Below are positions 13,366 through 57,452 of a DNA stretch of 64,000 nucleotides, one piece after another; position 1 is the stretch's first letter; every line of letters begins with the position of its first letter. Source of the DNA: Escherichia coli (GTDB lineage Bacteria; Pseudomonadota; Gammaproteobacteria; Enterobacterales; Enterobacteriaceae); the NCBI RefSeq assembly GCF_036507355.1, contig NZ_AP027877.1. One strand, given 5' to 3'. Position numbers and translations under genes: made by a program. The notes beneath the pieces are model-generated. The model did not search any database. It saw only the letters and a program-made list of their open reading frames with translations, and had not been told where the DNA came from.

Positions 13366-13547
13366 AAAATATAAACTTTTTTCTACTCTTGAGCGGTTTG
13401 TCATTTAACCGCTCAGTAATAGATTGTTTATAAATTGTTTATATTTAGCATTGGTGTTTTTATTTGCGTTCATCCCGAATAAGAGATTGTAAAATTAACT
13501 GTTTCTTATTTTTCAAATGAGTTACTTCACTAGTAAAGCTAATTACT

Positions 13548-14879: not shown

Positions 14880-14920
14880 GTGGTTTATTTTTCGACCAGG
14901 ATCTCACCAGTAGGCATGAC

Positions 14921-16156
14921 ATGATCAAAGAAATTTTCTCCGATGGCATTTTTTCGCTATTTAATAAAATATGTTACTTCGGTTTTAAAACACTTGCAAT
15001 AATTCTGATTACTCGTTCCTTAGGAGAAGATGTAGGCGGAGAGTTCATTTTTTTAGTTGGTTTTCTCGAAGTCCTTCGGGTGGTTACTGATTTTGGTGTG
15101 GATCTGTTTGTTATAAAAAAATATAATGATTCTACAGATAAAATAAAACTATTAAATGTAACGTTTGCACAAAAAATTCTTTCTGGAGTAATTGTTTTAC
15201 TACTGTTTTGTTTGTATTCTTTTGTTCAGGGTTATCAATATAATGTCTATATTCCTATTGTGTTAGCCTTACCTGTTGCTTTATTTTTTAATTTCTCAAA
15301 TAGCTATTTTCAATCTCTAAATTCCAATAAATCTCTCACGTTTCCGATCGCAATTGCATCTATTGCAACGTGTACGATCTTCGCTATTCAGTATTTTTTC
15401 AACGTTAAATTTAACGCATGGGATTACCTGTGTGTTGAACTATTATTCGTATCGCTGGTTACACTAAAACTATTCGTTAGTGTCAAGTTTAGGTTTATTA
15501 GAACGTCAGCTTTTGATGTGCTAATGTCAATTCTTTCTTTATATAAATATACATTAAGTATAGGTCTTACAGCTGTTGTTGTAATTATTTATAGCCGTAT
15601 AGATAATTTTTATCTCAAGACATTTGCCCCAGGGGATCTTGCAGCATATGGCCAGATATTTAGGATGGTTGATCCACTGGTTATGGTTTCTTCTGTATTT
15701 TCTACAGTTGCCTATGCAAGATTTTGCCGAATTAACTTACAAGAAAAAAATACTTTTACTAAGGTGTTTCAGTTCCTGTTATGTATTGTGGCATATGGCG
15801 TGCTGAGTTCATTAGTTTATTTCTTTATAATAAAATACCTGGGTCATTTTGTATTGATTTCTAATGTTAATAATGATTTCTTGATAATGATGTTCTTGAT
15901 TGTTGCATGTGTGAAATGTATCAATGGTGGTACAACTGCAATAATTCAGTCACAGGGGTTTTATAAAGTGGGTTTGTATGTTTCGTATGTTTGCATTTTG
16001 ACATCGATACCAACTATGTATTTCTTAATAATGAAGTACGGTGTTAAAGGTGCTGCTATGACGATTCTGCTTGTAGAGTGTATTAGTTTCATATTACTTC
16101 TCTGCAGCTTTTTTATGATAAAAAAGATGCGTCCTAAAAAAACATTCGAAATGTAA
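14921..16156 (+). CDS. wzx: Putative O-antigen flippase (411 aa)
   Basis: Polytopic membrane protein with polysaccharide-biosynthesis-protein-like N-terminus; last gene before gnd. Confidence 0.55.
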   Translation: MIKEIFSDGIFSLFNKICYFGFKTLAIILITRSLGEDVGGEFIFLVGFLEVLRVVTDFGVDLFVIKKYNDSTDKIKLLNVTFAQKILSGVIVLLLFCLYSFVQGYQYNVYIPIVLALPVALFFNFSNSYFQSLNSNKSLTFPIAIASIATCTIFAIQYFFNVKFNAWDYLCVELLFVSLVTLKLFVSVKFRFIRTSAFDVLMSILSLYKYTLSIGLTAVVVIIYSRIDNFYLKTFAPGDLAAYGQIFRMVDPLVMVSSVFSTVAYARFCRINLQEKNTFTKVFQFLLCIVAYGVLSSLVYFFIIKYLGHFVLISNVNNDFLIMMFLIVACVKCINGGTTAIIQSQGFYKVGLYVSYVCILTSIPTMYFLIMKYGVKGAAMTILLVECISFILLLCSFFMIKKMRPKKTFEM

Positions 16157-32950: not shown

Positions 32951-34375
32951 TTAGACAATCTCTTCCGCGTACTGCCAAAGCGCTTTTAACAGCGCCACTT
33001 TTTCTTTATCGTCGGCATACTGCTGCGCCAGCATCTGAATCTCTTCTGCATAGCCTTGTAAAAACACGGGTGTGAATACCTGGCGGCGGTGTTCCAGCCA
33101 GCGTTGCTGCTCGGCATAATCCAGCGTCCCCGGGAAGTTGCGCGCCCGATAATTGAACAACAGCTTTTCAATCCGTTTATCGACAAAAGTGATATCCAGT
33201 GCCGGTAAATTACGTGGCTCGGTTTCCAGCACAATTTTCATTGCTGCACGATCGGCGTCACTGAAAAAGCCGTTATAAAGCTGTGCATCCACGTTATCTG
33301 AAGGCGTAAACGGTTCGGCTTCCGCGAATATCGCCACCACTTTTTCGCGCACTTGCGGATTTTCACGCAGAATTTTCAGGTTATCGAGGCAATGCTGACG
33401 ATTAATTCCCAGTCGGTCGGCATCTTCCGGGCGTAGCGTATTCGCCTGGGCCAGCACCGGACATTTATTGATATGCACCAGCTTAACCGGAACGGCGGCG
33501 TTATCGCCAAGATCGGTTTTTGCGGTATATAAACGCTCGCGCAATGTGTCGCTATCCAGTTCCAGTAATGGCGAAATGTCTCCTGCCAAATCCACCATAA
33601 TTACGGCATTGCGATTTTCAGGATGCCACGCCAGCGGTGCCACCCAGCTGGTATTGCCGCGCCATGCCCCAAACATTCCGGAAACGTGAACCAGGGGTTT
33701 CATCTGCGGAACATCAATCAACGCCATCAGTTTGTGTTTATTGCGATGGGTAAAGAGATAATCAAACAGGCGTGGCTGACGCGTTTTTACCAGCTTTGCC
33801 ATCGCAATAGTGGCGTACACATCAGCCATCGCATCGTGGGCGTTGCTATGTTCAATTCCATTCGCTTTGGTTAAATGCTCAAGGCGAAAGCTCGGTAGAC
33901 CGTCATCATTTTCAGGCCAGTTTATTCCTTCCGGGCGCAGGGCATAACAGGCACGCATAACATCAAGTAAATCCCAGCGCGAGTTATCATGCTGCCAGCT
34001 CCAGGCGTAAGGATCGTAGAAATTACGATAAAAAATGTTGCGTGTGACTTCGTCGTCGAAACGCACATTGTTGTAGCCCAGAATACAGGTCTTCGGTACG
34101 GTAAAAAGCGAGTGAATACGGGCGGTAAACGCGGCTTCGTTTTCTCCTTTCGCCCGTGCTTCCTGCGGGGTAATACCGGTAATTAATATGGCTCCAGGCT
34201 GGGGTAAATAGTCATCCGCAGGCTTGCAGTAAAAGACTTCGGGTTCGCCGATGACATTGAATTCGCTATCGGTGCGAATGGCTGCGAACTGTGCAGGGCG
34301 ATCTAACGCGGGGTGCGTGCCAAAGGTTTCGTAATCGTGAAAGAGGAAGGTAGGTTGTTTATCTGTGTCTGTCAT
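32951..34375 (-). CDS. sbcB: Exodeoxyribonuclease I (474 aa)
   Basis: DEDDh exonuclease N-terminus (FHDYETFG); position. Confidence 0.9.
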   Translation of the reverse strand: MTDTDKQPTFLFHDYETFGTHPALDRPAQFAAIRTDSEFNVIGEPEVFYCKPADDYLPQPGAILITGITPQEARAKGENEAAFTARIHSLFTVPKTCILGYNNVRFDDEVTRNIFYRNFYDPYAWSWQHDNSRWDLLDVMRACYALRPEGINWPENDDGLPSFRLEHLTKANGIEHSNAHDAMADVYATIAMAKLVKTRQPRLFDYLFTHRNKHKLMALIDVPQMKPLVHVSGMFGAWRGNTSWVAPLAWHPENRNAVIMVDLAGDISPLLELDSDTLRERLYTAKTDLGDNAAVPVKLVHINKCPVLAQANTLRPEDADRLGINRQHCLDNLKILRENPQVREKVVAIFAEAEPFTPSDNVDAQLYNGFFSDADRAAMKIVLETEPRNLPALDITFVDKRIEKLLFNYRARNFPGTLDYAEQQRWLEHRRQVFTPVFLQGYAEEIQMLAQQYADDKEKVALLKALWQYAEEIV

Positions 34376-34556
34376 TGTCTATCATTGTCCACTGTAGTTA
34401 ATTAACTGTCTGTTATAACTCGAAAAACAACCCTTTTTTCACCTGAGTATGTCTACGAACGTCAAATATAGTTGTTTACTGTGCGCTGTTGTCCATGTGA
34501 TATTGTGTACCAGATGTGTACCAAACTATTATTTCTGAGCGTACCAAATATTATTT

Positions 34557-34853
34557 ATGGCTATAAGCGACACAAAACTGCGTACTATTTATGGTAAACC
34601 ATATTCGGGCCCACAAGAAGTGGCTGATGCCGATGGCCTCAGCGTACGAATTTCACCGAAGGGGGTCATCCAGTTCCAGTACCGCTATCGCTGGCATGGC
34701 AAGCCTAATCGACTTGGGCTTGGTCGATACCCATCCCTGTCTTTGAAGGATGCCAGACAGATCACTGCTGACTTGCGAAAGCTCTATTTCTCAGGAACGG
34801 ATCCACGCACCTATTTTGAAGAGAAGGTGGAGAACTCCATGACGGTACGTTAA
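34557..34853 (+). pseudogene. Integrase N-terminal fragment (arm-binding domain only, 98 aa)
   Basis: Resembles the N-terminal arm-binding domain of P4-family integrases (SDTKLRTIYGKP...GLSVRISPKG...YRYRW); ORF stops before any catalytic domain. Confidence 0.6.
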
Positions 34854-34902
34854 TTTCTTCCGGTGTGAGCGTTGGGGAAGTCCATTCCTTGGGCGCGCGG
34901 AT

Positions 34903-35739
34903 TTGAATACTGTGGAGTTCATCAGTGAAGCACCTAAGTTTCTTATGTGTTTCAGTTCTAATTCACCTATAGACGTATGGGACACCGCTGATTTATTTAT
35001 TAGTGAATGCTCAATGTTTGCTGGAGATTTTGCGGTAAGAACACGCACAACACTTGGTGGGATGGGTGGAACAGACCAATTCGCGGGTTATCCGGTTATA
35101 ATTTCAAATAGCGTTTTTGATGCCATCAACGGTACTGCTTTTGATATGGAGAGTCTAGCTTACGCTACCATCAGCGGTAACATTATTAGTGCAGGGAGGA
35201 TAAACAATAGTCGTGGAATTAATATTAAAGGGGCAAGAAACCTAACATTTACAGGAAACACTATCACTTACTGTGGTGAGTTCGGCATGGTATTGGAAAA
35301 TGCTGAACAATGTTCTTTGTCTAATAATATATTCAACGGAAATAAGACTGGTGGGCTATCGTTGGTAAACTGTAAAGAAATATCTGTTATTGGCGGCTCT
35401 ATGGGTACGTCTTATATCAAAGGTGGGTACTACGTGCAACCACTTGGGATCACAGACCCTGCTGATAACTGTAACGGCATAACCATCAATGGCGTTTCTT
35501 TCGATAGCGATATGACAACCAAGATTTACCTTAATACATCGGAAGAGCGCAAAAACCGTATTATAGCTTGTCTAGGTGTTAATGATACTCAGACGACTTA
35601 TCAAAACCGTGGATCTACTGCGCAGCGCCCTACAGCACCAGTCAGTGGGCAGATGTATTATGATACAACGCTAGGTCTTCCAATATGGTATAACACAGTA
35701 TCATCTGAATGGAAGAGGGCGGATGGTACAAGTGTATGA
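34903..35739 (+). CDS. Phage tail fibre / tailspike fragment (beta-helix repeats), probably truncated
   Basis: Low-GC ORF with repeated NxxGxxxxG beta-helix-like segments; no credible N-terminus; directly precedes gtrC as in serotype-converting phages. Confidence 0.55.
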   Translation: MNTVEFISEAPKFLMCFSSNSPIDVWDTADLFISECSMFAGDFAVRTRTTLGGMGGTDQFAGYPVIISNSVFDAINGTAFDMESLAYATISGNIISAGRINNSRGINIKGARNLTFTGNTITYCGEFGMVLENAEQCSLSNNIFNGNKTGGLSLVNCKEISVIGGSMGTSYIKGGYYVQPLGITDPADNCNGITINGVSFDSDMTTKIYLNTSEERKNRIIACLGVNDTQTTYQNRGSTAQRPTAPVSGQMYYDTTLGLPIWYNTVSSEWKRADGTSV

Positions 35740-35770
35740 TAATGCGGGTGCTTAGCACCCGCTTATTTAA

Positions 35771-37237
35771 TTAATTGCAGTTGAATGTAATGTTTTTATC
35801 GTAAACAAAAATCTTCTTATCTCCGACGTCAATAACCTTTGATGGATTACCAATCTCTTTAATTGTTATATTTCTCATAACCTCATCATCTGTAATTATG
35901 AAATTTCCTCCGCGCTCATACCAATAGTTTTTTGACAACCATTTATTGCATGCAAGTATATTCAAACCTCGGTTTACATCAATCGGAGCAATTGATATGT
36001 CTCCATCTATACTTGCTGATGAAGCAAACCAGAAAGATGCATACCCGTTTGTGAGGTTATTCTGCCTTACAGTGTGTTTTATCTGATTTATAATATCATT
36101 AGAATTGTCTTTTTTTTCATGCATATAAATAGAACAAAAGAGAATAAATGTTGTAACAACCCCTAATGCGATGAATTTCCACCCTCTGGAGTTGTTAGAT
36201 CTGCCAATAACAACAGGTGCTAGTATAAAAAATGGAACGATATATCTTATAGTCCATTCATCTATTGGACGGTTACTTGCAAGGTATGCTGGTATCATTA
36301 TAATACAAGCTATACATATAGCCATATTGACCATGGAGGTTTTGAATATTTCCTTTACTGACATTGCAACTAATATAAGAAGTAAAATCATTACAACAAA
36401 ACAAAAAACAGAAATAAGCGCTGTAATATCAGAAGGTGGTTTGCCAAAGAAGAAAGCTCCACTGTATAGGAGGAATCCTTTTACGAATAAGTATAAATTA
36501 TTCAGGATATCATCAAATGCAACAAATGTTGGATCTGGAACGCCTGGCAAAATGTACCAGTTATGAGCTCTTGCGTACATGGTCATAATTTTTGATGCAA
36601 CATATGCAAATATAGTTGCAACTAGTATGATCAGATTTTTTTGGCTTTTGGTTTTTACTATAAAAATCACTGATGATATTGCTACTGGTGCAATAATGAG
36701 TAGCTTTATGATGTCATCACTGAAACAAGCTAGAACTAACACTAAAATATAAAGAGATAGAGAAATTAACGATCTTGTTTTGGAAAAATTGTCTAACATT
36801 ATGAAGCAAAACAACATGGATACATATGTGCCGACATGTATCACAGGTATTAATACGTTTAATACTGCAAACCCAGAAGGCAGCGCAACGCAAAATGAAA
36901 TGGCCCATAACGATGAAAGCCTTTCTTTTGAAAGATAAAATGTCATCAATGTAACCATTGAATACATAATTGCCGGTATGCAGTATGCTTGGTACTGTCC
37001 GTACCAGAATACCTTTGAAGCAAGTCCGTACCATATTATGTCTGTAAAATAGAATGATACTGTAGAGAGATACCATCCACTAAGCGTCCAATTTCCGTCC
37101 GCAATGTCCTTACCCTCAAGAAGTCCAGAAACAGCATCCGAACTTGGCAAAATCTGTTTTGAAATCGAGGCGTAGAAGAAAGTCAAGAATATAAATCCAA
37201 TGATATATATGGCTGTTTTTTTTATATTTAAAGTCAT
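35771..37237 (-). CDS. Serotype-specific O-antigen glucosyltransferase, GtrC-like (488 aa, polytopic)
   Basis: Large low-GC multi-TM protein immediately downstream of gtrB and gtrA in the same operon. Confidence 0.65.
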   Translation of the reverse strand: MTLNIKKTAIYIIGFIFLTFFYASISKQILPSSDAVSGLLEGKDIADGNWTLSGWYLSTVSFYFTDIIWYGLASKVFWYGQYQAYCIPAIMYSMVTLMTFYLSKERLSSLWAISFCVALPSGFAVLNVLIPVIHVGTYVSMLFCFIMLDNFSKTRSLISLSLYILVLVLACFSDDIIKLLIIAPVAISSVIFIVKTKSQKNLIILVATIFAYVASKIMTMYARAHNWYILPGVPDPTFVAFDDILNNLYLFVKGFLLYSGAFFFGKPPSDITALISVFCFVVMILLLILVAMSVKEIFKTSMVNMAICIACIIMIPAYLASNRPIDEWTIRYIVPFFILAPVVIGRSNNSRGWKFIALGVVTTFILFCSIYMHEKKDNSNDIINQIKHTVRQNNLTNGYASFWFASSASIDGDISIAPIDVNRGLNILACNKWLSKNYWYERGGNFIITDDEVMRNITIKEIGNPSKVIDVGDKKIFVYDKNITFNCN

Positions 37238-37238
37238 T

Positions 37239-38153
37239 TTACTTATCCTTTAGAATGTATCTTGGTCGTTGCTTAACTTCAACATAAATTCTTCCTATAT
37301 ACTCTCCAAGAACTCCTATGCCTATTAACTGAACTCCACCAAGAAACAATATTGATACAATGATAGAAGGGTAACCTGGAACACTATTTCCAAACATCAA
37401 TTTATCAGCAATCATCCATGTTCCATAAAGGAATGATAAGGTTGCCACAAACAGGCCTATATAAGTCCACATGCGCAAAGGGAAAGTAGAAAAGCTAGTG
37501 ATCCCTTCCAGCGCTAAGTTCCAGAGCTTCCATCCATTGAACTTTGTGCTTCCTGCAACGCGTTCTGCTCGCGCATATTCTACGACATCGGTTCGACCAC
37601 CAACCCAGCTCAGCACACCCTTCATAAACAGGTTTCGTTCTGGCATGAGCTTAATGTTTTCTACTACTTCGCGAGACATGAGCCGGAAGTCGCCAACATT
37701 TTCTTCTATCTTAGGGTTGCTGATTTTGTTATGAAGCTTATAGAACCACTCAGCAGATTTACGCTTCAGCCTGCTGTCAGTGGAGCGGTCAGAGCGTTTA
37801 GCCAGAACCATATCTGCACCGGCCTGCCATTTCTCTATCAAGTGAGGAATAACTTCGATAGGGTCTTGCAGATCAACGTCAATCGGGATAATTGCCTCCC
37901 CGGTAGCATGGTCCAGGCCTGCGAACAGGGCGGGTTCTTTGCCGAAGTTACGTGTGAACGACAGCGAAACAACAAGCGGGTCGGCAACAGCAAGCTCGTT
38001 GATAATTGATTCTGTAGCGTCTTTGCTGCCATCGTTTATGAAGACTATCTCGACTTCATGCTGCTGAAGCCCTTCAAATTCGCGCACGGTTTTATAAAAA
38101 ATAGGTATCGTGGCCTCTTCGTTAAAGACCGGAACGACTAAAGAAATTTTCAT
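37239..38153 (-). CDS. gtrB: Bactoprenol glucosyltransferase (GT2) GtrB (304 aa)
   Basis: GT2 N-terminal domain (VVPVFNEE...INDGSKD...DVDLQDP) and two C-terminal TM helices. Confidence 0.85.
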
Positions 38154-38512
38154 TTCGCATCCCTAAAGACAATGAACTTTGAATAGACGAAACCGCACAC
38201 CAGGCTGATGGCGGAGAAGGTGATAAGAGTGACAATTGGAGGAAGTGAACATCTATCAGCAGCCCATCCAACAGTAGCACTGAGTGTTCCCATGAACCCG
38301 ACATATAACATGTAGCGCATCGTTGTAGTTGATGCTTTGAATGTGAATTTTGCATTCGCGAAGAAGCTAAAACTCACAGCCACAACAAAACCTGCGAAGT
38401 TTGCCAGAGCCTGATTGGTATGCGCGGCATAGATACAAACACCAAAAACCACCCAGTGTATAAGGGTGTTCAGCACACCAATAGAGGTGTACTTTGCAAA
38501 TAGCTTTAACAT
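38150..38512 (-). CDS. gtrA: GtrA-family flippase for UndP-glucose (120 aa)
   Basis: Small 4-TM GtrA-like protein; overlaps gtrB start by 4 nt. Confidence 0.85.
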
Positions 38513-38642
38513 TTCTTCTATCAGCTAATAATCAAAGGCATGAAGTCTATCATCCAAGTCTCAATCGATCGATACTTGCTGTAATTGCTGAGACAAAACT
38601 GAGACAAACAAAGCTTTGCACTGGTTTGCAAGTCTTTGTGTC

Positions 38643-38714
38643 ATTCGATAGTTAAGGTGGATCCCTCCACCTTTTCATCAAGCCAATCCGCCCACCACTG
38701 CATCATTTCTCTGC
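38643..38714 (-). pseudogene. Remnant of the 3' end of a P4-family integrase gene
   Basis: Minus-strand translation RREMMQWWADWLDEKVEG... parallels the C-terminus (RIEMMQWWSDYLDAN) of the intact integrase at 55789-57066; the upstream frame is closed by a stop. Confidence 0.5.
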
Positions 38715-39307
38715 GCTTAACGTAGCGGATGCCTCACTATCACACGGTGATGGTTCATTACTGCTTTGTAGAATGGATAGAGAACTGAGGATTAAAAGAT
38801 ATCCCAAAACCCCAAAATCTCATCTTTAGGATTTGCAGAAAGGGAGGCGTGAACAGATACCTGCGCATGAAGACGGAACTAGTCCAGATGTGATATTTGT
38901 GGTGATCACATACATCATCAACGATGCTCGTTATGGTGAGTTTGATGACTACCCGATGAAGTGAAAATTGTGTTGTGTACCAAATTGCGTACCAAACTAA
39001 AATTACAAATCATGAAACCCTTGTTCATGGCGGTTCTCAGGGGTGTTGCGCGTAATCGTGAAACAAAAAGGTAGATTGTTGCTTACCGTCATTCATCATT
39101 AGGTTAAATCCGTTATTTCTGCTGTCTGCCAGAGTATCAAATATCACCGTACTAATCAGCTTTAGCGCCACAATTTGGCAGCGAGTGGCAATAGATCATG
39201 TCAGATAAAAATGAGAGGGTAGTCACATTTTCTTGCACTTTATTCCAGCCAGTTCATAAGTATTTCCGTAAAAAGAACAGCTATTTGAAACTCCTGAGGG
39301 TTTGCTG

Positions 39308-40474
39308 TTGAAACGCCGTCTTATTATTGCTGCTTCTTTGTTCGTTTTTAACTTATCGTCTGGTTTTGCGGCGGAAAACATTCCTTTTTCACCTCAGCCT
39401 CCAGAGATTCATGCCGGGTCCTGGGTACTGATGGATTACACCACCGGACAGATCCTCACCGCGGGTAATGAGCATCAACAGCGCAATCCTGCCAGCCTGA
39501 CAAAGCTGATGACGGGTTATGTCGTGGATCGCGCTATCGATAGTCATCGCATTACGCCAGACGATATTGTCACCGTGGGGCGCGATGCGTGGGCGAAAGA
39601 TAATCCGGTGTTTGTCGGTTCTTCACTGATGTTTTTGAAAGAGGGCGATCGCGTATCGGTACGTGATTTAAGCCGTGGTTTAATTGTTGATTCCGGAAAT
39701 GACGCTTGTGTTGCACTGGCTGACTATATTGCCGGTGGGCAACGGCAGTTTGTTGAAATGATGAACAACTATGTCGAGAAGCTGCATCTCAAGGATACGC
39801 ATTTTGAAACAGTGCATGGCCTGGATGCGCCAGGTCAGCATAGCTCGGCTTATGATTTAGCTGTGCTTTCTCGCGCTATCATCCACGGCGAGCCCGAGTT
39901 TTATCATATGTACAGTGAGAAAAGTCTCACCTGGAACGGTATCACCCAGCAAAACCGTAACGGGTTGTTGTGGGATAAAACCATGAATGTTGACGGCCTG
40001 AAAACGGGTCATACTTCTGGTGCCGGGTTTAATCTCATTGCTTCGGCTGTAGATGGGCAGCGTCGTCTCATTGCAGTGGTAATGGGGGCTGACAGTGCAA
40101 AAGGTCGTGAGGAAGAGGCAAGAAAATTACTGCGTTGGGGGCAACAAAACTTTACTACGGTGCAAATTTTGCACCGTGGGAAAAAGGTCGGAACGGAACG
40201 CATCTGGTATGGCGATAAAGAAAATATCGACCTGGGAACGGAACAAGAGTTCTGGATGGTGCTACCGAAAGCCGAAATTCCACATATCAAAGCCAAATAT
40301 ACCCTTGATGGTAAAGAGCTCACCGCGCCAATTAGCGCCCATCAGCGGGTAGGGGAAATTGAACTTTACGACCGTGATAAACAGGTGGCGCACTGGCCGC
40401 TGGTTACCCTGGAATCTGTCGGGGAAGGCAGCATGTTTTCTCGCCTGAGTGATTATTTCCACCATAAGGCCTGA
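39308..40474 (+). CDS. dacD: D-alanyl-D-alanine carboxypeptidase, PBP6b (388 aa)
   Basis: SxxK, SGN and KTG motifs; start taken as TTG at 39308. Confidence 0.85.
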   Translation: MKRRLIIAASLFVFNLSSGFAAENIPFSPQPPEIHAGSWVLMDYTTGQILTAGNEHQQRNPASLTKLMTGYVVDRAIDSHRITPDDIVTVGRDAWAKDNPVFVGSSLMFLKEGDRVSVRDLSRGLIVDSGNDACVALADYIAGGQRQFVEMMNNYVEKLHLKDTHFETVHGLDAPGQHSSAYDLAVLSRAIIHGEPEFYHMYSEKSLTWNGITQQNRNGLLWDKTMNVDGLKTGHTSGAGFNLIASAVDGQRRLIAVVMGADSAKGREEEARKLLRWGQQNFTTVQILHRGKKVGTERIWYGDKENIDLGTEQEFWMVLPKAEIPHIKAKYTLDGKELTAPISAHQRVGEIELYDRDKQVAHWPLVTLESVGEGSMFSRLSDYFHHKA

Positions 40475-49135: not shown

Positions 49136-49808
49136 TGCGGATTTTGTTGTAGTTTATTGAATTTAAATGATTTTTATGAGTAGAATAAAAATAAGGCCCT
49201 TAGAAAGGCCCCTCAGATATTTTTGCTTAAAAAGATGATGTAAGTCACATTTTCAGGGGCTGTTACCTGGAGGTCTTAAAACCAACGAGAGGTCGTCATT
49301 CCTGGCGTATAGCGGGAATGCACCAGACATACAGAAACAGGGACTTGCACCAGCTTTAATATAGCTGGCTGCACCAGATCCTGGCGCTGCAAAAGTCCAT
49401 GATTGCGCCAGATTCTGAGGGATTACATCGATCTGAGCCAGAGTTGTCCCTTTGGGTTATAGCCTTTTCAGGTCAGGTGCTGTTACCCTTAGCTGGCCTT
49501 TACCCTTTTCCTTTTGACCGTCGGCTATGTGCCAAAAGCGGAATTCCAGTGGTTCTAGAAAAGCTATCATTCCATGGTCAAATTTTGTCGATCACTGCAC
49601 TTATGGAACCGCCATAACATAGGTAGATAGTTGAAGATAGCTAGAACGATGATAGATGATTTTCTTTACAGGGCTGACTTCTAGTCTATCTCATGTAATA
49701 CTCTATATTATATCTAATGTACAATATTAATAGCATTGTGATGTATCGACAACATGGATAGTCCACTGCTATTAAAACTATAATGACATTTAATTGAGAA
49801 ATATAAAA

Positions 49809-50826
49809 ATGACTCTATTAGAAAAATTGTTATCAAAAGGATACTTTCCTAAAGAAGCTCTCCCTCCTTTCTCTACGGAAAAATATGCACGCGCAATTGT
49901 GAATGGATACGATAATCTTCCCCAATTATTTAGAACCGGAAAATTCATAAGTAAGTGCGCTATTCATAATATTTCCAGAAAAGGTACATTACGGAGAAAA
50001 CTTGGAATACCTAATCCCATCAACTTCTTTAGATTAAGTGAGGCAATAACTGAAAATTGGTACGATATATATGAATGCGCAAGTGAATCAACAATATCGT
50101 TGACAACTCCAGACCCTGCCAGCAATGGCGGAAGAGCATTCAACCCAAAGCATTCATTAAATGAGCTTCCAGATATTCATGCAAAACTTAGAAGTAAACA
50201 TAAATATATACTTAAAACCGATATAAGCAGATTTTACCACTCAATATACACTCATAGTATTGCATGGACTTACCATACAAAAGATATTTCAAAAAGAAAC
50301 AGAAGCAATAGTTTATTTGGCAATGTATTAGACAAGCATTCGCAAGATTCGCAAGATGGACAAACAATAGGGCTCCCCATTGGTCCAGATACATCACTTA
50401 TCATAGCAGAGTCTCTGTTATCAAATATTGATCTTAAGCTTAGCGAAAAAGGCATTAGCAATGGCTTACGTTATATAGATGATTATTTCCTAGGGTTCAA
50501 TACAATTGGGGAAGCAGAATCTGCATTAACAATAATGCAGGAACTGTTAAACGAATATGAGTTAGCATTGAACCCCTTGAAAACAGAAATCATACAATTA
50601 CCAATTGAATTCGAGCCATTAGCAATTTCAGAACTAAGGGCATTTTCATTTAGAGATACAGCTGGCGGTCAGAAATCAGATTTAATGCATTATTTCAACA
50701 TAGCTTTCAAGGCAGCAAAAGATTTACCAACGGAACCAATATTAAAATATGCAGTATCAAGGACATTTGAAGTAAATGTTACTGCTGAAAACTATCCTGT
50801 TTTTGAAAATTTTATATTACAATGTG
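49809..50826 (+). pseudogene. Reverse transcriptase, N-terminal 339 codons, interrupted by IS1
   Basis: RT motifs DISRFYHSIY, GLPIGPDTSL, YIDDYF (YxDD) and LNPLKTEI; the frame runs straight into the IS1 end at 50827. Confidence 0.8.
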
Positions 50827-50881
50827 GGTGATGCTGCCAACTTACTGATTTAGTGTATGATGGTGTTTTTGAGGTGCTCCA

Positions 50882-51157
50882 GTGGCTTCTGTTTCTATCA
50901 GCTGTCCCTCCTGTTCAGCTACTGACGGGGTGGTGCGTAACGGCAAAAGCACCGCCGGACATCAGCGCTATCTCTGCTCTCACTGTCGTAAAACATGGCA
51001 ACTGCAGTTCACTTACACCGCTTCTCAACCCGGTACGCACCAGAAAATCATTGATATGGCCATGAATGGCGTTGGATGCCGGGCAACAGCCCGCATTATG
51101 GGCGTTGGCCTCAACACGATTTTACGTCACTTAAAAAACTCAGGCCGCAGTCGGTAA
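50882..51157 (+). CDS. insA: IS1 InsA (91 aa)
   Basis: Zinc-finger N-terminus CPSC...CSHC; canonical IS1 ORF. Confidence 0.95.
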
Positions 51158-51579
51158 CCTCGCGCATACAGCCGGGCAGTGACGTCATCGTCTGCGCGGA
51201 AATGGACGAACAGTGGGGCTATGTCGGGGCTAAATCGCGCCAGCGCTGGCTGTTTTACGCGTATGACAGGCTCCGGAAGACGGTTGTTGCGCACGTATTC
51301 GGTGAACGCACGATGGCGACGCTGGGGCGTCTTATGAGCCTGCTGTCACCCTTTGACGTGGTGATATGGATGACGGATGGCTGGCCGCTGTATGAATCCC
51401 GCCTGAAGGGAAAGCTGCACGTAATCAGCAAGCGATATACGCAGCGAATTGAGCGGCATAACCTGAATCTGAGGCAGCACCTGGCACGGCTGGGACGGAA
51501 GTCGCTGTCGTTCTCAAAATCGGTGGAGCTGCATGACAAAGTCATCGGGCATTATCTGAACATAAAACACTATCAATAA
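51076..51579 (+). CDS. insB: IS1 InsB (transposase catalytic part, made as InsAB by frameshift)
   Basis: Canonical IS1 second ORF overlapping insA. Confidence 0.9.
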
Positions 51580-51602
51580 GTTGGAGTCATTACCTACAAT
51601 GT

Positions 51603-51881
51603 GTTACAGCTGACAGTAGCACATTAAAATACACCGTCAATCAGCTTATAAAATACAAAAGAATAGGTTATGTTCAGAACGTTGAGAACATTTCGCATAT
51701 TTTGAGACAATTAGCAATAACTGAAAGCTCACTTGGCCATGGACACGAAGTTGCTTATTGCCTATGGCTTTATTTGATACTACGCATCCCCATACCAGAA
51801 GTCGTCGTTAAAAATGTGGTACCAATGAGAGATCCATTTGTTGCAATTTTGTTATGCGATTGCAGGCAAAAAACCTCATGA
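51603..51881 (+). pseudogene. Reverse transcriptase C-terminal 92 codons displaced by IS1
   Basis: With one copy of the 9-bp duplication removed, the RT frame continues without stops from 51603 to TGA at 51879-51881. Confidence 0.7.
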
Positions 51882-52171
51882 CTTTTATACCTGATTTCTC
51901 AATTTATGAGCAAATGATGGTGATGGAAGAGCTATCGGGCGATATGTAGATTTTTGTCTATGAGATGCTTGCAAAAGGATGGTTTCAACCATTATCAAAC
52001 CAAAATCCAATTAGTCAAAATGAGTGTTATAGGTTCCTATTGAATTCAGGTGTTTTTTTCTATAATGAACATCTCTCATTAACTATTATGGCTGAAAGTC
52101 CAATTGATACAGATGGCTCGGCAGAGGGATTCAGTGGTTGAAATTAAAAATTATCTGTAAATAACTAACCC

Positions 52172-52210
52172 CCCTCCCTTTAATTTAATATTAAGGGAGG
52201 GTTGTGTTTC
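52172..52210 (+). terminator. Hairpin terminator downstream of the RT gene
   Basis: ccctccctt-(12 nt)-aagggaggg perfect 9-bp stem followed by ttgtgtttc; also marks a GC-content transition. Confidence 0.4.
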
Positions 52211-52449
52211 GATATACATATATGGGCTTTGGTGAATAAATCAGATTTGGGATAAACATCCCTGGAGACAGTTGCAGCTGTCAGGTAATACGCACGCTTT
52301 TTGCTCAGAACCCCATCAATGCGCCGCCAGCACTTTTGCAGCCAGCCCAGTCGGGTTACGCCGTCTGGACTCCCAACTTTTGATGATATCGACGCTGGTT
52401 CCTTAGGGTTATTGCGTAACGATTTATTCTGCGCCAGTCATGAAAGCCG

Positions 52450-53409
52450 TTATTCCTTCTTCCATTCGTGCGCGTAAACCTGCTTCACCCAGCGACCGCG
52501 CCCGTCGCCATGCCCCAGGTCCATCGCCACCATTGCCAGCGCCTCTTTTTCGCTGAATCCCTGCGCCAGATACCGGCGAATATCGTCCTGCGCCAGATAC
52601 CGGCGAATATCGTCCTGCGCCCAGGCGTAACGCAGCGAATGTGGGGAGTATTTGCCCGTCAGCCCCATACGCAAAGTCTGGTTGCGCCAGTATTTCATTG
52701 CCTGTTTAAGGCTTGCCGCATCAATCAGCCTGCCGTTGCGCAGTCCTGCCACCACAATGGCATTATCGAGCGCCCGTTTAACTGCGCCAGCATTCTGAAT
52801 AAGGGTATCGCGGGGCCGCCCGCCTTTGGTGCCAAACACGATGGTTAGCCGGGTGGCTCCACGTTCAAGCGACTGCCGCCACGTCAGCAATGAACGTGAA
52901 CAGCGTACCGCCTCCTGTGAACGTAACCCCATCAGCCGCGCCAGCTCCAGCGCTGCCGCCAGTCCTGCGTCTTTCAGCCGGGCAGTCTCTGCCATCTGTT
53001 GATAATATTCCGGCGTGATGGCTTTCCGTGTACCATTGCGGGATACGCCAGCCAGCCCCAGCGATTTATTCGATATCCGCTCACTCTGCGCCAGTTTTTC
53101 GCGCCCGGCCTGCGTCAGTATTTTACGGATAGCCGCCGTTTCGTTATGCAGCGTCTGTTTCTGAATACCCTGCGCCAGTCGCATCTGAATATACGCCTCA
53201 ATATGCTTCGCCTTTAAATGATGGACATAGCGTATCTGAACGTTCAGTTCCGTCAGTCGTTCGCAGAACCGTTCTGCCATGGCGATACGGTCATGGACAG
53301 TCTTGTGCGCCCCGCCAGCCTGCCGCGCCAGGTTTTTCATCTCTCTTTCCAGCATACCCATTTTGCTTTTCCTCTTATCTCGCTCCTGATTTTCACAAAA
53401 CCACAACAC
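52450..53409 (-). CDS. Tyrosine recombinase / phage-integrase-family protein with internal 9-aa tandem duplication (319 aa)
   Basis: C-terminal HSLRY...LGHGDGRGRWVKQVYAH resembles recombinase box II with catalytic Tyr; DDIRRYLAQ is duplicated through a 27-bp tandem repeat at 52561-52614. Confidence 0.6.
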   Translation of the reverse strand: MLWFCENQERDKRKSKMGMLEREMKNLARQAGGAHKTVHDRIAMAERFCERLTELNVQIRYVHHLKAKHIEAYIQMRLAQGIQKQTLHNETAAIRKILTQAGREKLAQSERISNKSLGLAGVSRNGTRKAITPEYYQQMAETARLKDAGLAAALELARLMGLRSQEAVRCSRSLLTWRQSLERGATRLTIVFGTKGGRPRDTLIQNAGAVKRALDNAIVVAGLRNGRLIDAASLKQAMKYWRNQTLRMGLTGKYSPHSLRYAWAQDDIRRYLAQDDIRRYLAQGFSEKEALAMVAMDLGHGDGRGRWVKQVYAHEWKKE

Positions 53410-54253
53410 ACAACGGATACAGCTTTCCCCGGCGCATAGGCCGATAGCCCCTGATTTTTGTCGGGGCTGCGAGCAGTACCTGAGCGCCGGGGCGACGGCT
53501 GTTGAGGTTTTGCGGGGTATCGGTTGTGCTCTCAGAGCAGCCGCCAGCGTGAGCTGGTCATCCCCCGGACCGTCCTGGTGGTCCCCCTCCGGTACTGGCT
53601 CATGTTCTCCTTTGGTGAATGAATGGTTGAAATAAATGCTGAAAAGCGACGTCAGAAGCTCGCCTGTGGCTGGAACAGTTGATATGACTGGTGCAGATGA
53701 AAATTTCTGCGGGCGTCAGTCTCTCACTCTGCGTGAGCGACTGACGCCCTGGTCTGGCGCAGGCGCTGAAAATTACACTCTGGTGCAGGATGGCGGCCAC
53801 GCGGCAGCAAATGCCTTCGGCAAATGCAGGCCGCAGCCCGTCATGTAAAGGGCGCTGGTAATCAGCAGGGTATAAGTGGGCCGGAGAAATTCCGGCAAAG
53901 AGAAACCGTGCAGCCGGTGAAGGCTGTTGCCGTTAAGCGATGACGATGAAGCCGTCCAGTGTATGTACTCTTAGCCTCAAACGCTTTCGCGTTCCGGTAT
54001 TGCGGAGGTCGTACCGGTAGCAGGGGGCTGGTCGTCCTGATAAATCAGGGGCTTCTTGCAGACCATGAAGCCAAAGGGGCTGTCAACCGACAGCTTATTG
54101 CAGGAGAGAGATTACACCGTAATTTCTGGCGCAGAAAGGGGAAACTCATTTTTCTGGAAATTGAGTTTCCCCCTGAATTTATGGAAAGTTTGTGAATGGA
54201 ACACTGCCGCGCTTCGCTTGTCGTCTCCCGGTGTGCGATTTGCTGTATCAGGA

Positions 54254-54502
54254 TCATCGCTTTCGCATGAACCTTTCCAGGCGATTACCTTTGCCGTCGA
54301 AGTATCTGGAAGGCCAGATGATCTCTGGAGCTATCTCCAGCGCATCTGCAATAAGTTTTTCTCCGCGCGGCCACGGGCGGGAAAGTGCATTTGCCAGTGT
54401 GGAAGAACTCAACCCTGCTTTACGCGATACCTCAGCCAGTGAGGTCCCTTTCTTTCTTAATCCGGCAATGATATCTGCCGGATGCCAGTCATCTTTATTC
54501 AT
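54254..54502 (-). CDS. Ner/Nlp-family DNA-binding protein (82 aa)
   Basis: DWHPADIIAGLRKKGTSLAEVSRKAGLSSSTLANALSRPWPRGE closely matches the Ner/Nlp family signature. Confidence 0.8.
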   Translation of the reverse strand: MNKDDWHPADIIAGLRKKGTSLAEVSRKAGLSSSTLANALSRPWPRGEKLIADALEIAPEIIWPSRYFDGKGNRLERFMRKR

Positions 54503-54614
54503 TGTTTTCCCCTGTTTCCAAATCTGGTTTTTCTGACTTTAGGAACTCTAAAGGCAATGAATCTTAAGGAATGCTAAAGATGGTGTCAATGTAACTATTA
54601 ACCAAACAGGTTAT

Positions 54615-54914
54615 ATGATCCCTGAACGACTCAAGGCAGCGAGGTTGCGGGCTAATCTCACCCAGGAACAACTGGGCGTTCGTGCAGGCATCGCCGAAGA
54701 TACGGCCTGCTCCCGGCTTTCTCAGTACGAAAGTGGAACACACAAGCCCACATTCAAAATGGTTTGTGCCTTTGCTCGTGTTTTGCATGTTCCTGAATGT
54801 TACTTCTATGCACAGGAAGACACTTTCGCCGAAGCGATTTTAAGGCTGTATGACGGTGAAACTGTGCAGTGGAATATAAAAACAGAGATCGTTCATCATA
54901 CTGAACGGGTATAA
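54615..54914 (+). CDS. XRE-family HTH regulator, copy 1 (99 aa)
   Basis: HTH region LTQEQLGVRAGIAEDTA...YESGTHKP; paralogue of the next gene. Confidence 0.7.
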   Translation: MIPERLKAARLRANLTQEQLGVRAGIAEDTACSRLSQYESGTHKPTFKMVCAFARVLHVPECYFYAQEDTFAEAILRLYDGETVQWNIKTEIVHHTERV

Positions 54915-55013
54915 ACCTCTTGCCTCATCCATCCTCTTTATGAACTCTAAAGAAAAATGCTCTTGAGGAATGCTAAAGATTACCGTCATAAATTCAAACT
55001 GATGGTAATTTCA

Positions 55014-55283
55014 ATGATCCCCAAACGCTTAAAAGAAGCCAGATTGCGGGCTAAACTCACTCAGGAAAAATTGGGGGTACTGGCGGGTATTGAAGAAGCC
55101 ACGGCTTATTCGCGTCTGTCACATTACGAGAGTGGTACGCATAAACCAACTTTTGATCTCGTTTGTGAGTTTGCCCGAGTACTCAATGTACCAGAATGCT
55201 ATTTCTATACGGTGGATGATGATTTCGCGCAGGCGGTGTTGGATCTTCATGCCAGGTGGACAAAGAGAACTACGGAAAGATAG
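55014..55283 (+). CDS. XRE-family HTH regulator, copy 2 (89 aa)
   Basis: MIPKRLKEARLRAKLTQEKLGV... about 60% identical to copy 1; start aligned to copy 1. Confidence 0.65.
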   Translation: MIPKRLKEARLRAKLTQEKLGVLAGIEEATAYSRLSHYESGTHKPTFDLVCEFARVLNVPECYFYTVDDDFAQAVLDLHARWTKRTTER

Positions 55284-55304
55284 ATCGCAGAAAATAAAAA
55301 ACCC

Positions 55305-55390
55305 CGCTGGTGAGGCAGGGTTCTTTATTTTTCGTTCTCAGACTGCTTATAGCGACCTGAGCAACGTTGCGCGACAATACAATCCTAGCA
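55305..55390 (-). ncRNA. Candidate antisense sRNA antitoxin (Orz/IstR-like), predicted from promoter, repeat and terminator
   Basis: Minus-strand promoter-like elements (-35 ttgcaa, palindromic, at 55419-55424; -10 taaact from 55396-55401); transcript would begin inside repeat 55369-55392 and end at a hairpin plus T-run near 55300-55335. Confidence 0.3.
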
Positions 55391-55418
55391 GAATAAGTTT
55401 AACCCGCTTTGTTTCCCG

Positions 55419-55448
55419 TTGCAAACAAACGCTCCCGGTCTTTATAAT
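55419..55448 (+). promoter_or_regulatory. Sigma70-like promoter for the toxin mRNA (-35 TTGCAA, 18-bp spacer, -10 TATAAT)
   Basis: ttgcaa at 55419-55424 and tataat at 55443-55448 on the plus strand; gives a 5' UTR of roughly 180 nt. Confidence 0.45.
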
Positions 55449-55634
55449 GCCAGACGCTGGGTTTATCACGTTTCAGGCCAGACCGATTTCAAGCCCTGAC
55501 TGCCGGACGGGTGGTGCCGCAGGCAGTGCCCCGGTCTGGAGCGTGATAATACAATCCTAGCAGATGTGATCCTGCGCCGACAGGCAATGTAAGGGTAAGG
55601 TGCAGGCGTTGCGCTCCTTTCATAAGGAGAGCGG

Positions 55635-55724
55635 ATGGACATGTTGACGCGAAAGCTGATCGTGCTCATCGCCGTACTGGAGCTTTTGCTGGCTCTGCTG
55701 CGGTTGATTGATCTGTTGAAATAA
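55635..55724 (+). CDS. Candidate type I toxin, 29-aa hydrophobic peptide MDMLTRKLIVLIAVLELLLALLRLIDLLK
   Basis: ATG at 55635 five nt after AGGAG; single predicted TM helix; similar in length and composition to ZorO/DinQ/TisB-type toxins; followed by a hairpin terminator. Confidence 0.55.
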   Translation: MDMLTRKLIVLIAVLELLLALLRLIDLLK

Positions 55725-55744
55725 TTCTCAGATTGAAACGCACC

Positions 55745-55770
55745 AAAGGGGAAACACCCGTTTCCCCTTT
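55745..55770. terminator. Bidirectional hairpin terminator between the toxin ORF and the integrase gene
   Basis: aaaggggaaac-accc-gtttccccttt with A/T runs on both sides. Confidence 0.6.
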
Positions 55771-55788
55771 AATAAATACGCTGCTTTG

Positions 55789-57066
55789 TTACGACGCCTG
55801 TTTCAGGCGGCGGGCATACTGGTAAGCTGAAACATACCCGTCACTGTTTGCATCAAGATAATCTGACCACCATTGCATCATCTCGATCCGCTCTTCCAGA
55901 TATTCAGCCTTGTGAATATACGCAGCGCGGACGCTGTTTCTTTCCTGGTGACTCATTTGTTTTTCAATCGCTTCTTTGCTCCACAGCCCCGATTCACTCA
56001 ACGCACTACATGCCATCGCCCGGAAGCCATGCCCGCAGACGTCTTTTTTGGTGTCATAGCCCATCACCCGCAGCGCTTTATTCACGGTGTTGTCGCTCAT
56101 GCACTTATCCTGGTCGTACTCGCCGGGAAAGATAAAGGCCAGATGACCGGAGAGGGCTTCGATCTGTTTCAGGATCGCAATTGCCTGATCCGACAGCGGC
56201 ACGATATGTTGAATTTTCATTTTCGACCCCCGGTAAGAGAAGCGCACATTTTCGATCTGCTCGCGTTCTTCCGCGATCACCCACAGCTTTTGCTGCCAGT
56301 CGATTTCACTCCAGCGAGCAAAGCGTAGCTCGCTGGAGCGCACAAAAAATATCAGTGACAACTTAAGGGCGTATTTCGTCAGCAGCCTGCCGCAGTAGTT
56401 ATCCGTACGGGTTAAAAGCTCTGGCAGCCTGTCCAGCGACAGGGCCGGGTAATGATTAGTCTCTGGCGCAGCAAATTCACCATCCAGATACAGCGCGGGG
56501 TTCGCTTTGAGCAACTGCTTTTTCATCGCGTAGTGCATGATGTCGGTGACATAGTTTTTCAGCCGGGCGGTGATCTCCAGAAAGCCTTTGCTCTCCACCT
56601 TACGCAGCGTGACCAGCAAATCCTCTGTTTCGATCTCCCCGATAAGGCGATCCCCGATATCCGGGAAAACATACATTTCCAGTCTGCGCATAACCGTTTT
56701 CGCGTAATGTTCAGACCAGCGTTTATGCTCGCCATGCCAGTTAGTGGCGACCTGGCTGAACGTCTGTCCGTTTTTCTTCTTCTGTTTCTCCGTCTGCTTC
56801 ACCGCAGCAGGATCGACGCCTGCATGAATGTTATTGCGTGCCGCTTCCCGTAAACGGCGAGCCTGCAACAGCGAGATCCCCGGGTAGGGGCCAAAGGCCA
56901 GCTTTTTCTCTTTCCCGTCGATACGGTACTTCATGTACCAGAGTTTTGAGCCATTAGGTTTGATCAACAGGTACAGTCCGGAACTGTCTGTCATTTTGAA
57001 AGGTTTGTCGGAGGGTTTGATCTTGCGAATCGTGGTATCTGTTAATGCCATAGCGGGGGGCTCCAT
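55789..57066 (-). CDS. P4-family tyrosine integrase (425 aa)
   Basis: N-terminal arm-binding domain (LTDTTIRKIKPSDKPFKMTDSSGLYLLIKPNGSKLWYMKYR) plus C-terminal catalytic domain; adjacent to the tRNA-Asn 3' end. Confidence 0.9.
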   Translation of the reverse strand: MEPPAMALTDTTIRKIKPSDKPFKMTDSSGLYLLIKPNGSKLWYMKYRIDGKEKKLAFGPYPGISLLQARRLREAARNNIHAGVDPAAVKQTEKQKKKNGQTFSQVATNWHGEHKRWSEHYAKTVMRRLEMYVFPDIGDRLIGEIETEDLLVTLRKVESKGFLEITARLKNYVTDIMHYAMKKQLLKANPALYLDGEFAAPETNHYPALSLDRLPELLTRTDNYCGRLLTKYALKLSLIFFVRSSELRFARWSEIDWQQKLWVIAEEREQIENVRFSYRGSKMKIQHIVPLSDQAIAILKQIEALSGHLAFIFPGEYDQDKCMSDNTVNKALRVMGYDTKKDVCGHGFRAMACSALSESGLWSKEAIEKQMSHQERNSVRAAYIHKAEYLEERIEMMQWWSDYLDANSDGYVSAYQYARRLKQAS

Positions 57067-57215
57067 TTGCTCACCGAACCGTGAGGCCCCCGATTAAGCC
57101 CACAAAAACTATGGATGTCAAGAAACCCGGTAGCCTCTTGTGAGACAACCGGGTAAAGATAAGTTCTTGTTTTTTAACTATCTCGAGACTCATAGAGATG
57201 TCTCAAAACTAAAAT

Positions 57216-57291
57216 CTGGCTCCTCTGACTGGACTCGAACCAGTGACATACGGATTAACAGTCCGCCGTTCTACCGACTGAACTACAGAGG
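57216..57291 (-). tRNA. asnU: tRNA-Asn (GUU), island integration target
   Basis: 76-nt minus-strand tRNA identical to the other copies. Confidence 0.95.
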
Positions 57292-57452
57292 AATCGCTGT
57301 TGAGGCACATCTTAACGGCGAAAAATCTTTTGTCAAACCCGATTTTTAAATTCCCCAACTGTTTGCCGTTTCTATCAACAGTTTGTTGCATTTGCAGACA
57401 ATTTGTTGGCGAAAATCTTTGCAGCTTTGCTGATTCTCCCTCATTATTTGAA

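Follow-up and report, generated by a model that had tools for sequence, protein, structure and literature searches.

This study concerns a prophage remnant in a 64,000-nucleotide stretch of Escherichia coli DNA (RefSeq assembly GCF_036507355.1, contig NZ_AP027877.1), referred to below, at its full length, as the window. The remnant occupies positions 34330-39063 (4.7 kb), between sbcB and dacD, and is bounded at each end by a 13-bp attachment (att) core. It contains an integrase fragment, part of a tailspike gene and a three-gene O-antigen glucosylation (gtr) module, made up of gtrA, gtrB and a gene for a 488-amino-acid protein that is called a "hypothetical protein" in all records examined. 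An earlier account made from the letters of the DNA, here termed the sequence-only reading, had described the locus as a decayed prophage with an intact-looking gtrABC module, and the att cores, a deletion junction and the uninterrupted reading frames bear this out.

The 13-bp core, CGTAATCGTGAAA, is present twice, as attL at 34330-34342 and as attR at 39051-39063, and is the same as the attP core of phage mEp234, annotated as "type 2851". attL lies within sbcB, where it spans the F-H-D-Y codons read on the minus strand, just upstream of a conserved ...ETFG motif. The phage arms on the inner sides of the cores are readily recognised: positions 34330-34846 have 99% identity to the DNA that lies right of the core in mEp234 and Sf101, and positions 38587-39080 have 94.6% identity (mEp234) and 90.5% identity (Sf101) to the DNA left of it. 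The left flank, one core and the right flank together give exactly the empty site of E. coli K-12, in which the core is found inside sbcB at the same F-H-D-Y codons and the sbcB-dacD spacer measures 208 bp; the stretch from core to dacD is 99.2% identical to K-12. The insertion point is at sbcB codons ~12-16, within the 5' end of the gene rather than in the spacer. The sequence-only reading had located the element in the sbcB-dacD spacer, which is correct in that it lies beside dacD but not, by comparison with the empty K-12 site, as to where it was inserted. Sf101 integrates at the same sbcB site (PMC4159516), and a prophage with this integrase is found at sbcB in 564 of the 5,426 complete E. 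coli genomes from RefSeq that were searched.

As a consequence of the insertion, sbcB is now a chimera (32951-34375 and 39037-39105) in which about the first 11 codons come from a phage arm. The present open reading frame (ORF; 32951-34375, minus strand) starts MTDTDKQPTFL... in place of the native MMNDGKQQSTFL..., and its phage-derived 5' end (34343-34375, minus strand) is 99% identical to the mEp234 and Sf101 DNA beside the attP core. The native start, MMNDGKQQSTFLFHDY..., is left as a dead fragment beside dacD (39064-39105, minus strand), followed by the original sbcB-dacD intergenic DNA as far as 39301. Since the native start has been displaced together with the DNA upstream of it, sbcB must be transcribed from phage-derived DNA. 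The phage end restores an intact sbcB frame, which shows that phages of the 2851 type rebuild the frame that they interrupt. Both arms also contain GTGTACCAAA-like repeats, three at 34505-34548 (plus strand), between the core and the start of the integrase gene, and two at 38975-38996, within the P arm of the attP region (38587-39050). Five of the ten matches to this motif in the window fall within the two att arms, both exact ones included, and the repeats are probably arm-type integrase sites, those next to attL being candidate P' arm-type sites.

The integrase fragment (34557-34853, plus strand) consists of 97 authentic codons and ends at a TAA just after the deletion junction. Residues 1-97 are 100% identical to those of the 392-residue integrases of phages mEp234 and Sf101, which agrees with the integrase N-terminal fragment recognised in the sequence-only reading. 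The fragment ORF (98 codons) matches the NCBIfam profile PRK09692 at positions 16-101 of 413, and an identical ORF from another contig matches PF13356 (Arm-DNA-bind_3). Because its cognate integrase is cut to these residues, the element should be unable to excise itself. The adjoining tail gene fragment (34846-35739, plus strand), previously read as a piece of tail fibre, is the C-terminal 297 codons of a P22-like tailspike. It comprises the beta-helix receptor-binding part, without a start codon and without the head-binding domain, and corresponds to codons 291-587 of the 587-residue tailspike of the prophage in E. coli strain ST3, from which it differs at 3 of 297 residues with no internal stop. 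It matches phrog_7173 ("tail spike protein"; positions 370-626 of 626, E=1.7e-65) and the beta-helix repeat profile TIGR03804.

The point at which these two genes meet was mapped by BLAST in a three-way comparison of the window, the mEp234 integrase gene and the ST3 tailspike gene. Integrase homology ends and tailspike homology begins at 34845/34846, where integrase nucleotide ~289 is joined to tailspike codon 291 with a 1-nt overlap, a shared T. An in-frame fusion of integrase and tailspike can be rejected, since the two are read in different frames and that of the integrase stops two codons past the junction. ST3 and Sf101 support a gene order of attL, integrase, early genes, late genes, tailspike, O-antigen modification gene or genes (gtrCBA in ST3) and attR. 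Because the early and late genes lie between integrase and tailspike in such prophages, one internal deletion, running from integrase codon 98 through tailspike codon 290, accounts for the loss of everything else, and with it excision and virion production would also have been lost. The near identity of the tailspike fragment to its intact counterpart suggests a loss in one clean step and not by gradual decay. The junction itself is present in none of the 5,426 complete genomes, and the exact junction ORF was found elsewhere in one short public contig and one GenBank chromosome. The claim that all other phage functions are gone is correct; the appeal to selection for the modification genes is not needed, as the anatomy is accounted for by one deletion whose ends overlap by 1 nt.

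Phage Sf101 and the Stx2c phage 2851 are the closest models for the integration module, with the same 13-bp core, 99% identity in arm DNA and identical integrase residues 1-97. Sf101 also carries an O-antigen modification gene between tailspike and attP. It differs in being a complete phage and in having the acetyltransferase gene oacB instead of gtrABC, whereas in the window the integrase is truncated and the replication, lysis and head genes are gone.

A second piece of integrase-like sequence lies in the P arm at 38643-38714 (minus strand), where the translation ends ...KRREMMQWWADWLDEKVEGSTLTIE* and has a weak match (E=0.0015) to PRK09692, a P4-type integrase profile, confined to its last positions (381-403 of 413). 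The sequence-only reading took it for the remnant of an integrase 3' end. It does resemble an integrase C-terminus, but it is dissimilar to that of the element's own integrase type, and the same relic, 24-30 codons long, is conserved within the attP arm of intact mEp234 and Sf101. Because intact phages carry it too, it is not debris of the element's own integrase and is plausibly a very old fossil, left by a past exchange of integrases among phages of this group.

The gtr module lies between the tailspike fragment and the P arm, with all three genes on the minus strand: gtrA (38150-38512, 120 residues), gtrB (37239-38153, 304 residues) and the gene for the 488-residue protein (35771-37237). 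GC content drops from ~0.50 to 0.33 over 35750-37250, which points to a foreign origin of this part. The stops of the tailspike fragment and the 488-residue gene converge on a GC-rich hairpin (35744-35762), a likely bidirectional terminator recognised by a terminator scan and by reading of the sequence. The order of tail gene, gtrC, gtrB, gtrA and att, which the sequence-only reading compared with that of serotype-converting phages, is the same in the full ST3 prophage, and Sf101 has tailspike, O-antigen modification gene, attP and integrase gene in turn. gtrA starts 540 bp from the attR core, placing the module at the prophage end. The end of gtrA and the beginning of gtrB share 4 nt, and the gtrB stop (37239) and the start of the 488-residue gene (37237) are one base apart, an arrangement that fits a single operon. 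None of the three genes has an internal stop, their lengths are the same as those of their counterparts in intact prophages, and re-reading revealed no frameshift in gtrA or gtrB, so the frames are uninterrupted as claimed.

GtrA, a small membrane protein expected to translocate undecaprenyl-phosphate-linked glucose (Und-P-glucose), matches PF04138 (GtrA_DPMS_TM) end to end (1-117 of 117, E=1.4e-13) and the O-antigen conversion family phrog_2224 ("GtrA-like") over positions 1-120 of 120 (E=1e-70). GtrB, predicted to be a family 2 glycosyltransferase (GT2) that acts as a bactoprenol-phosphate glucosyltransferase, matches phrog_841 ("GtrB-like"; positions 2-306 of 309, E=1.9e-166) and phrog_34335 ("GtrB"; E=1e-179), along with NCBIfam profiles for PgfS and ArnC-type polyprenyl-phosphate glycosyltransferases. 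The two genes have ~80% DNA identity to those of Shigella phages SfIV, SfII, SfV and SfI. The gtr cassettes of Shigella flexneri (SfV, SfII, SfIV, SfI and SfX) share with the window module the operon of gtrA, gtrB and a type-specific gtr gene at the prophage end by attP, facing the tail genes, and remnants reduced to the gtr genes are common among them. They differ in acting on a rhamnose-GlcNAc (N-acetylglucosamine) acceptor, as against a mannose-GlcNAc backbone here, in their integration at thrW or argW rather than sbcB, and in the third protein, with no detectable sequence similarity between GtrV of SfV and the one encoded in the window.

The leader and presumed promoter region of gtrA (38513-38650, minus strand) is of the SfV type and has a single GATC when aligned with SfV, the P22-like phage SPN9CC, G4/9 and DLI.6n. 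In Salmonella, phase variation is conferred by a cassette in which two pairs of GATC sites, four in all, are combined with OxyR half-sites (Davies et al.). This P22-type cassette is present in SPN9CC and was not found upstream of gtrA in the window, which sets the module apart from Salmonella gtr operons. Because the cassette is absent, constitutive gtr expression appears more likely than phase variation.

The gtrA gene is itself a mosaic: it differs by 12 nt from that of the sbcB-resident DLI.6n prophage and by 15-22 nt from those of G4/9, M7424 and ST3 (22 nt from G4/9), whereas gtrB and the 488-residue gene are closest to G4/9. This pattern points to recombination in the conserved gtrA and gtrB genes as cassettes move between phages, within which frequent recombination has been described (Davies et al.). 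The homology to G4/9 ends at 38646, at the start of the sbcB-type arm. It is conceivable, though we would not favor it, that the element was assembled by homologous recombination between resident elements, for instance by the swap of a gtr cassette from thrW or att-lambda into an older sbcB remnant. The exchange may equally have preceded integration, and the junction between integrase and tailspike still requires one illegitimate deletion; such a history would be compatible with the origin from a single deleted prophage described above and would not replace it.

The 488-residue protein is the serotype-specific component of the module by position, and GtrC proteins are known to be diverse (PMC7685785; Davies et al.). 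It has no NCBIfam match, and neither it nor any of 21 homologues has a Pfam match, including to PF14264 (Glucos_trans_II), to which the likeness is structural only; the acyltransferase-3 domain (Acyl_transf_3) is likewise without a Pfam match in the 488-residue protein. A profile search of Protein Data Bank (PDB) sequences returned only a chance match to HMG-CoA reductase (E=0.78), and the PHROGs search returned three fragment families of "unknown function". Among 5.8 billion proteins searched, homologues form 24 clusters, all from Enterobacterales.

Structural modeling is more informative. An AlphaFold2 model built with the 21 homologues has a mean predicted local distance difference test score (pLDDT) of 86.7 and a predicted template modeling score (pTM) of 0.88, and the top 18 Foldseek matches in the PDB are glycosyltransferase C (GT-C) enzymes with polyprenyl-phosphate-linked donors (STT3, PglB, AftA, AftB, DPY19 and ArnT; probability 0.99-1.00, TM-score ~0.5). 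In the AFDB50 database, the matches include an 89% identical orthologue from Salmonella Uzaramo, a "Glucosyl transferase GtrII" (TM-score 0.85) and protein D3GZ10 of E. coli 042 (TM-score 0.94, 30% identity). Secondary structure assignment with DSSP places transmembrane helices up to residue 372 of the model and an alpha/beta domain after it. A topology of 11 transmembrane helices, with the N-terminus inside and the C-terminal domain outside, satisfies the positive-inside rule at all cytoplasmic loops. In the alignment of the 21 homologues, D34 and D44 in the first loop (at least 90%), H134 and R331 are invariant or nearly so, and D174 is invariant. All five residues are predicted to lie on the periplasmic side, as expected for a periplasmic GT-C enzyme, and D34, D44, H134 and D174 form a candidate active site. 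Like ArnT, PglB/STT3, AftA/AftB and DPY19, the protein combines the GT-C fold with an acidic first external loop and a C-terminal soluble domain, and it would also share with them a lipid-phosphate-linked sugar donor; it differs in being smaller, with ~11 predicted transmembrane helices, 8-14% identity and another donor and acceptor.

A relative backed by genetic evidence is that of E. coli 042 (O44:H18). D3GZ10, named "WbbG", corresponds to the paralogue P0018 (99.6% nucleotide identity to the 042 gene, beside yfdH/gtrB) and is homologous to the 488-residue protein over its full length (32% identity, E=6.6e-71, 96% coverage). The gtr cluster of 042 has been reported to be responsible for the O44 glucose branch (PMC7685785, PMC10304059), and it lies in a prophage between ybhB and ybhC (PMC10304059). 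The two genes have in common their protein family, a place after gtrA and gtrB and an O77-group host cluster, and they differ in prophage location and in sequence, at only ~30% identity. From its modeled fold and this homology, the 488-residue protein is predicted to be a GT-C glycosyltransferase of the family of the E. coli 042 (O44) gtrC product, and the relationship to GtrC-type transferases proposed by the sequence-only reading is upheld. The comparison with characterised glucosyltransferases that it had called for was successful for 042 and yielded no sequence similarity to Shigella GtrV.

In each gtr context examined, gtrA and gtrB precede the 488-residue gene or its relatives. The gene itself, at an identity of at least 99.3%, is present in 24 of the 5,426 complete E. 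coli genomes. In E. coli G4/9, whose allele differs by one amino acid, it lies in a thrW remnant; in M7424, in an SfV-like prophage at ybhB (NZ_CP063153.1, 1441334-1444075); and in ST3, likewise at ybhB, in a complete P22-like prophage whose full tailspike is followed by gtrC-gtrB-gtrA and att. M7424 and CNREC_004-43 (NZ_CM195844.1) carry it at 99.6% nucleotide identity in an SfV-like prophage at ybhB. In the cryptic clade I strain 2013C-4282 (NZ_CP027579.1, 1828284-1829749), the copy measures 1,466 nt as against 1,467, implying a 1-nt indel that reflects a frameshift or else faulty assembly. A third E. coli paralogue, P0017 (487 residues, 40% identical; L017, 5001-6464), also follows gtrA and gtrB, in a prophage at bioA-ybhB seen in at least 24 contigs from draft genomes and metagenomes. 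It was considered as the O17 determinant and rejected, being present in none of the 5,426 complete genomes, the O17 strain K12a included.

Outside E. coli, the closest orthologues (89%) are from Salmonella Carrau and Uzaramo, of group H (O:6,14); in Carrau the gene follows gtrA and gtrB in a remnant at proA/thrW. The group H O-antigen reportedly has the same backbone as O77. More distant relatives (~31%) occur in Salmonella group C1 serovars, one of them beside the tailspike of a Choleraesuis-type P22-like prophage, at a contig end, and these probably belong to the C1-specific GtrC families V or VI. In Salmonella, GtrC families correlate with the O-antigen backbone (Davies et al. 2013), and the C1-specific families shift the lipopolysaccharide (LPS) ladder (Davies et al.).

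A putative matching substrate is encoded in the same window. The O-antigen cluster at 8290-16156 (plus strand), 20 kb from the gtr module, is intact and contains two glycosyltransferase genes, manC, manB, wzy and wzx. Across its entire length (100%) it has 99.8% identity to clusters with wzx and wzy annotated as O17/O44/O73/O77/O106. These five serogroups share a Man-Man-Man-GlcNAc backbone (Man, mannose) and differ only in glucose side branches (PMC7685785; PMC10304059): the O77 polymer is unbranched, those of O17 and O44 bear a single glucose, and those of O73 and O106 bear two. Prophage gtr genes are held responsible for the branches, with confirmation for O44 only (PMC7685785; PMC10304059). 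The cluster has two glycosyltransferase genes for three mannose linkages, a count that agrees with the report that one enzyme adds two mannoses (review, PMC7685785).

The 488-residue gene and this backbone strictly co-occur. An O77-group wzy is present in 24 of 24 carriers of the gene, compared with 93 of 5,426 genomes overall (hypergeometric P=1.7e-44, a value that treats genomes as independent, which related genomes are not). The carriers cover three insertion sites and two phage chassis (P22-like and SfV-like) and come from distant lineages, among them sequence type 69 (ST69) of phylogroup D, cryptic clade I and a commensal that resembles K-12. The 042-type paralogue shows a similar association, with the O77-group cluster in 10 of its 12 carriers, and no genome among those listed has both genes. 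Because the two are mutually exclusive among the complete genomes examined, the enzymes presumably add glucose at different positions.

We consider it probable that the element is the stub of a temperate P22-like phage with a 2851/Sf101-type integration module, and that it retains a Gtr serotype-conversion module of an ordinary kind. The mechanism proposed for the module follows the established Gtr pathway. A phage of this kind would have inserted into the first sbcB codons and would then have undergone the internal deletion. Provided that the operon is expressed in this strain, GtrB would transfer glucose from UDP-glucose onto undecaprenyl phosphate at the cytoplasmic face, and GtrA would move Und-P-glucose across the inner membrane. 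In the periplasm, the 488-residue enzyme, with its 11 transmembrane helices, would place the glucose on one defined position of the growing O77-type repeat. The resulting branch would be expected to change the serotype, and it may benefit the host by blocking phages whose tailspikes need the unbranched backbone.

Several observations weigh against this interpretation. A scan for consensus sigma-70 promoters upstream of gtrA gave nothing convincing, leaving gtr expression resting on the conservation of the leader with SfV-type modules. Retention of the gtr genes can be explained without selection, because they adjoin attR and any internal deletion would tend to spare them. A tblastn search of 50,697 INPHARED phage records found no relative of the 488-residue protein, the viral structure library BFVD contains no close analogue of it, and hhalign gives a probability of 0.1% for its alignment with either SfV GtrV or the "glucosyltransferase domain-containing protein" (Glucos_trans_II type) of DLI.6n. 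In addition, one gtrC may not equal one serogroup, because O73 and O106 carry two glucoses each.

The promoter result would suit a silent fossil, in which the frames are open merely because the deletion is recent and the operon is either unexpressed or does not modify the O-antigen. The tailspike fragment has also stayed nearly unchanged, so open frames say little about selection since the deletion, and the junction arrangement is rare and possibly young. Some Salmonella gtr operons, moreover, have no visible effect (Davies et al.). We nevertheless regard such a fossil as improbable, in view of the leader, which is conserved in SfV and in the intact-prophage copies, and of the full gene set alongside an intact, matching O-antigen cluster in the window. 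The dN/dS ratio of the 488-residue gene, 0.18 against the Salmonella Carrau orthologue and 0.14-0.28 across the family, also argues against it, as a sign of purifying selection on the gene in general, though it is silent on the period since this deletion.

The dissimilarity to characterised Shigella GtrC proteins raises a separate question, namely whether this GT-C enzyme has another job, using another sugar or another acceptor (enterobacterial common antigen, core or capsule), or resembles the acetyltransferase-type "GtrC" of Salmonella family II. Its best PDB matches are oligosaccharyltransferases, PglB and arabinosyl- or aminoarabinose-transferases rather than glucosyltransferases, and some "GtrC" proteins are acyltransferases (Davies et al.; PMC4413052). 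The modeled fold, however, is GT-C and not acyltransferase-3, and the gene is always in an operon with gtrA and gtrB, whose products synthesise and translocate Und-P-glucose. Its distribution follows one O-antigen backbone and not a capsule or core type, and the 042 paralogue is a reported O44 glucosyltransferase. A different function is very unlikely on these grounds, and glucosylation of the O77-type repeat is the activity that best suits the module.

Which serogroup the module would specify is a more tentative matter. Neither the O17 reference strain K12a nor the O44 strain 042 carries the 488-residue gene, so its candidate serogroups are O73, O106 or a variant that has yet to be named. A literature search found no assignment of gtrC genes to O17, O73 or O106, and a 2023 paper describes the O73 enzymes as not yet identified (PMC10304059). 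A 15-strain announcement of "O77g" genomes has in-silico "O77g" labels only, except for K12a (O17), and the Symbioflor literature yielded no phenotypic serotype for G4/9. No gtr cluster other than the one containing the 488-residue gene was detected in the ST69 O77g:H18 lineage of Shiga toxin-producing and enterotoxigenic E. coli (STEC/ETEC; M7424, M00057, M11957 and CNREC_004-43). CNREC_004-43 is an isolate of the 2025 French hemolytic uremic syndrome (HUS) outbreak (outbreak report), and the outbreak isolates showed no agglutination with any of five O77-group antisera (outbreak report). C165-02, an older relative, carries an O73 label and gave its name to the stx2d-O73 variant. It is possible, if somewhat doubtful, that the gene is the missing serogroup determinant, adding an O73 or O106 glucose branch, or that it marks a sixth, unnamed form of the O-antigen. 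A K92 capsule could also mask agglutination, so the untypable phenotype is a lead and not a conclusion.

The Gtr mechanism of serotype conversion is already known; the window shows a second, unannotated member of the O44 transferase family, tied to the O77-group cluster. With O-antigen clusters that are >99% identical, O17, O44, O73, O77 and O106 cannot be told apart by genome-based serotyping. If the gene is indeed such a serogroup determinant, it could serve as a marker for subdividing "O77g" in silico and would account for the lack of agglutination. Knowledge of its specificity would allow sub-typing of "O77g" from sequence and would aid work on vaccines and phage receptors. The gene has practical relevance because an emerging ST69 lineage associated with HUS carries it, and the O-antigen of that lineage could not be typed by agglutination. 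The element also illustrates how a serotype-converting cassette can turn into a fixed chromosomal trait after one deletion.

The wider setting of the element is as follows. The window runs from wcaM and galF through the six-gene O-antigen cluster, gnd, ugd, wzzB, the his operon, plaP and tsuA/tsuB (yeeE/yeeD) to sbcB and the prophage island, in which an Rfam search gave no match. Beyond the island lie dacD (39302-40474), sbmC, yeeA, the cob genes and three tRNA-Asn genes. A second, small island (49794-57292) adjoins the tRNA-Asn gene at 57217-57292 (minus strand). An ORF at 49794-50831 in it resembles the antiviral reverse transcriptase Drt4 (2e-57, below the family cut-off, profile positions 4-333 of 489) and may be truncated. 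The island also encodes a full-length P4-type integrase at 55789-57066 (PRK09692, 1e-74).

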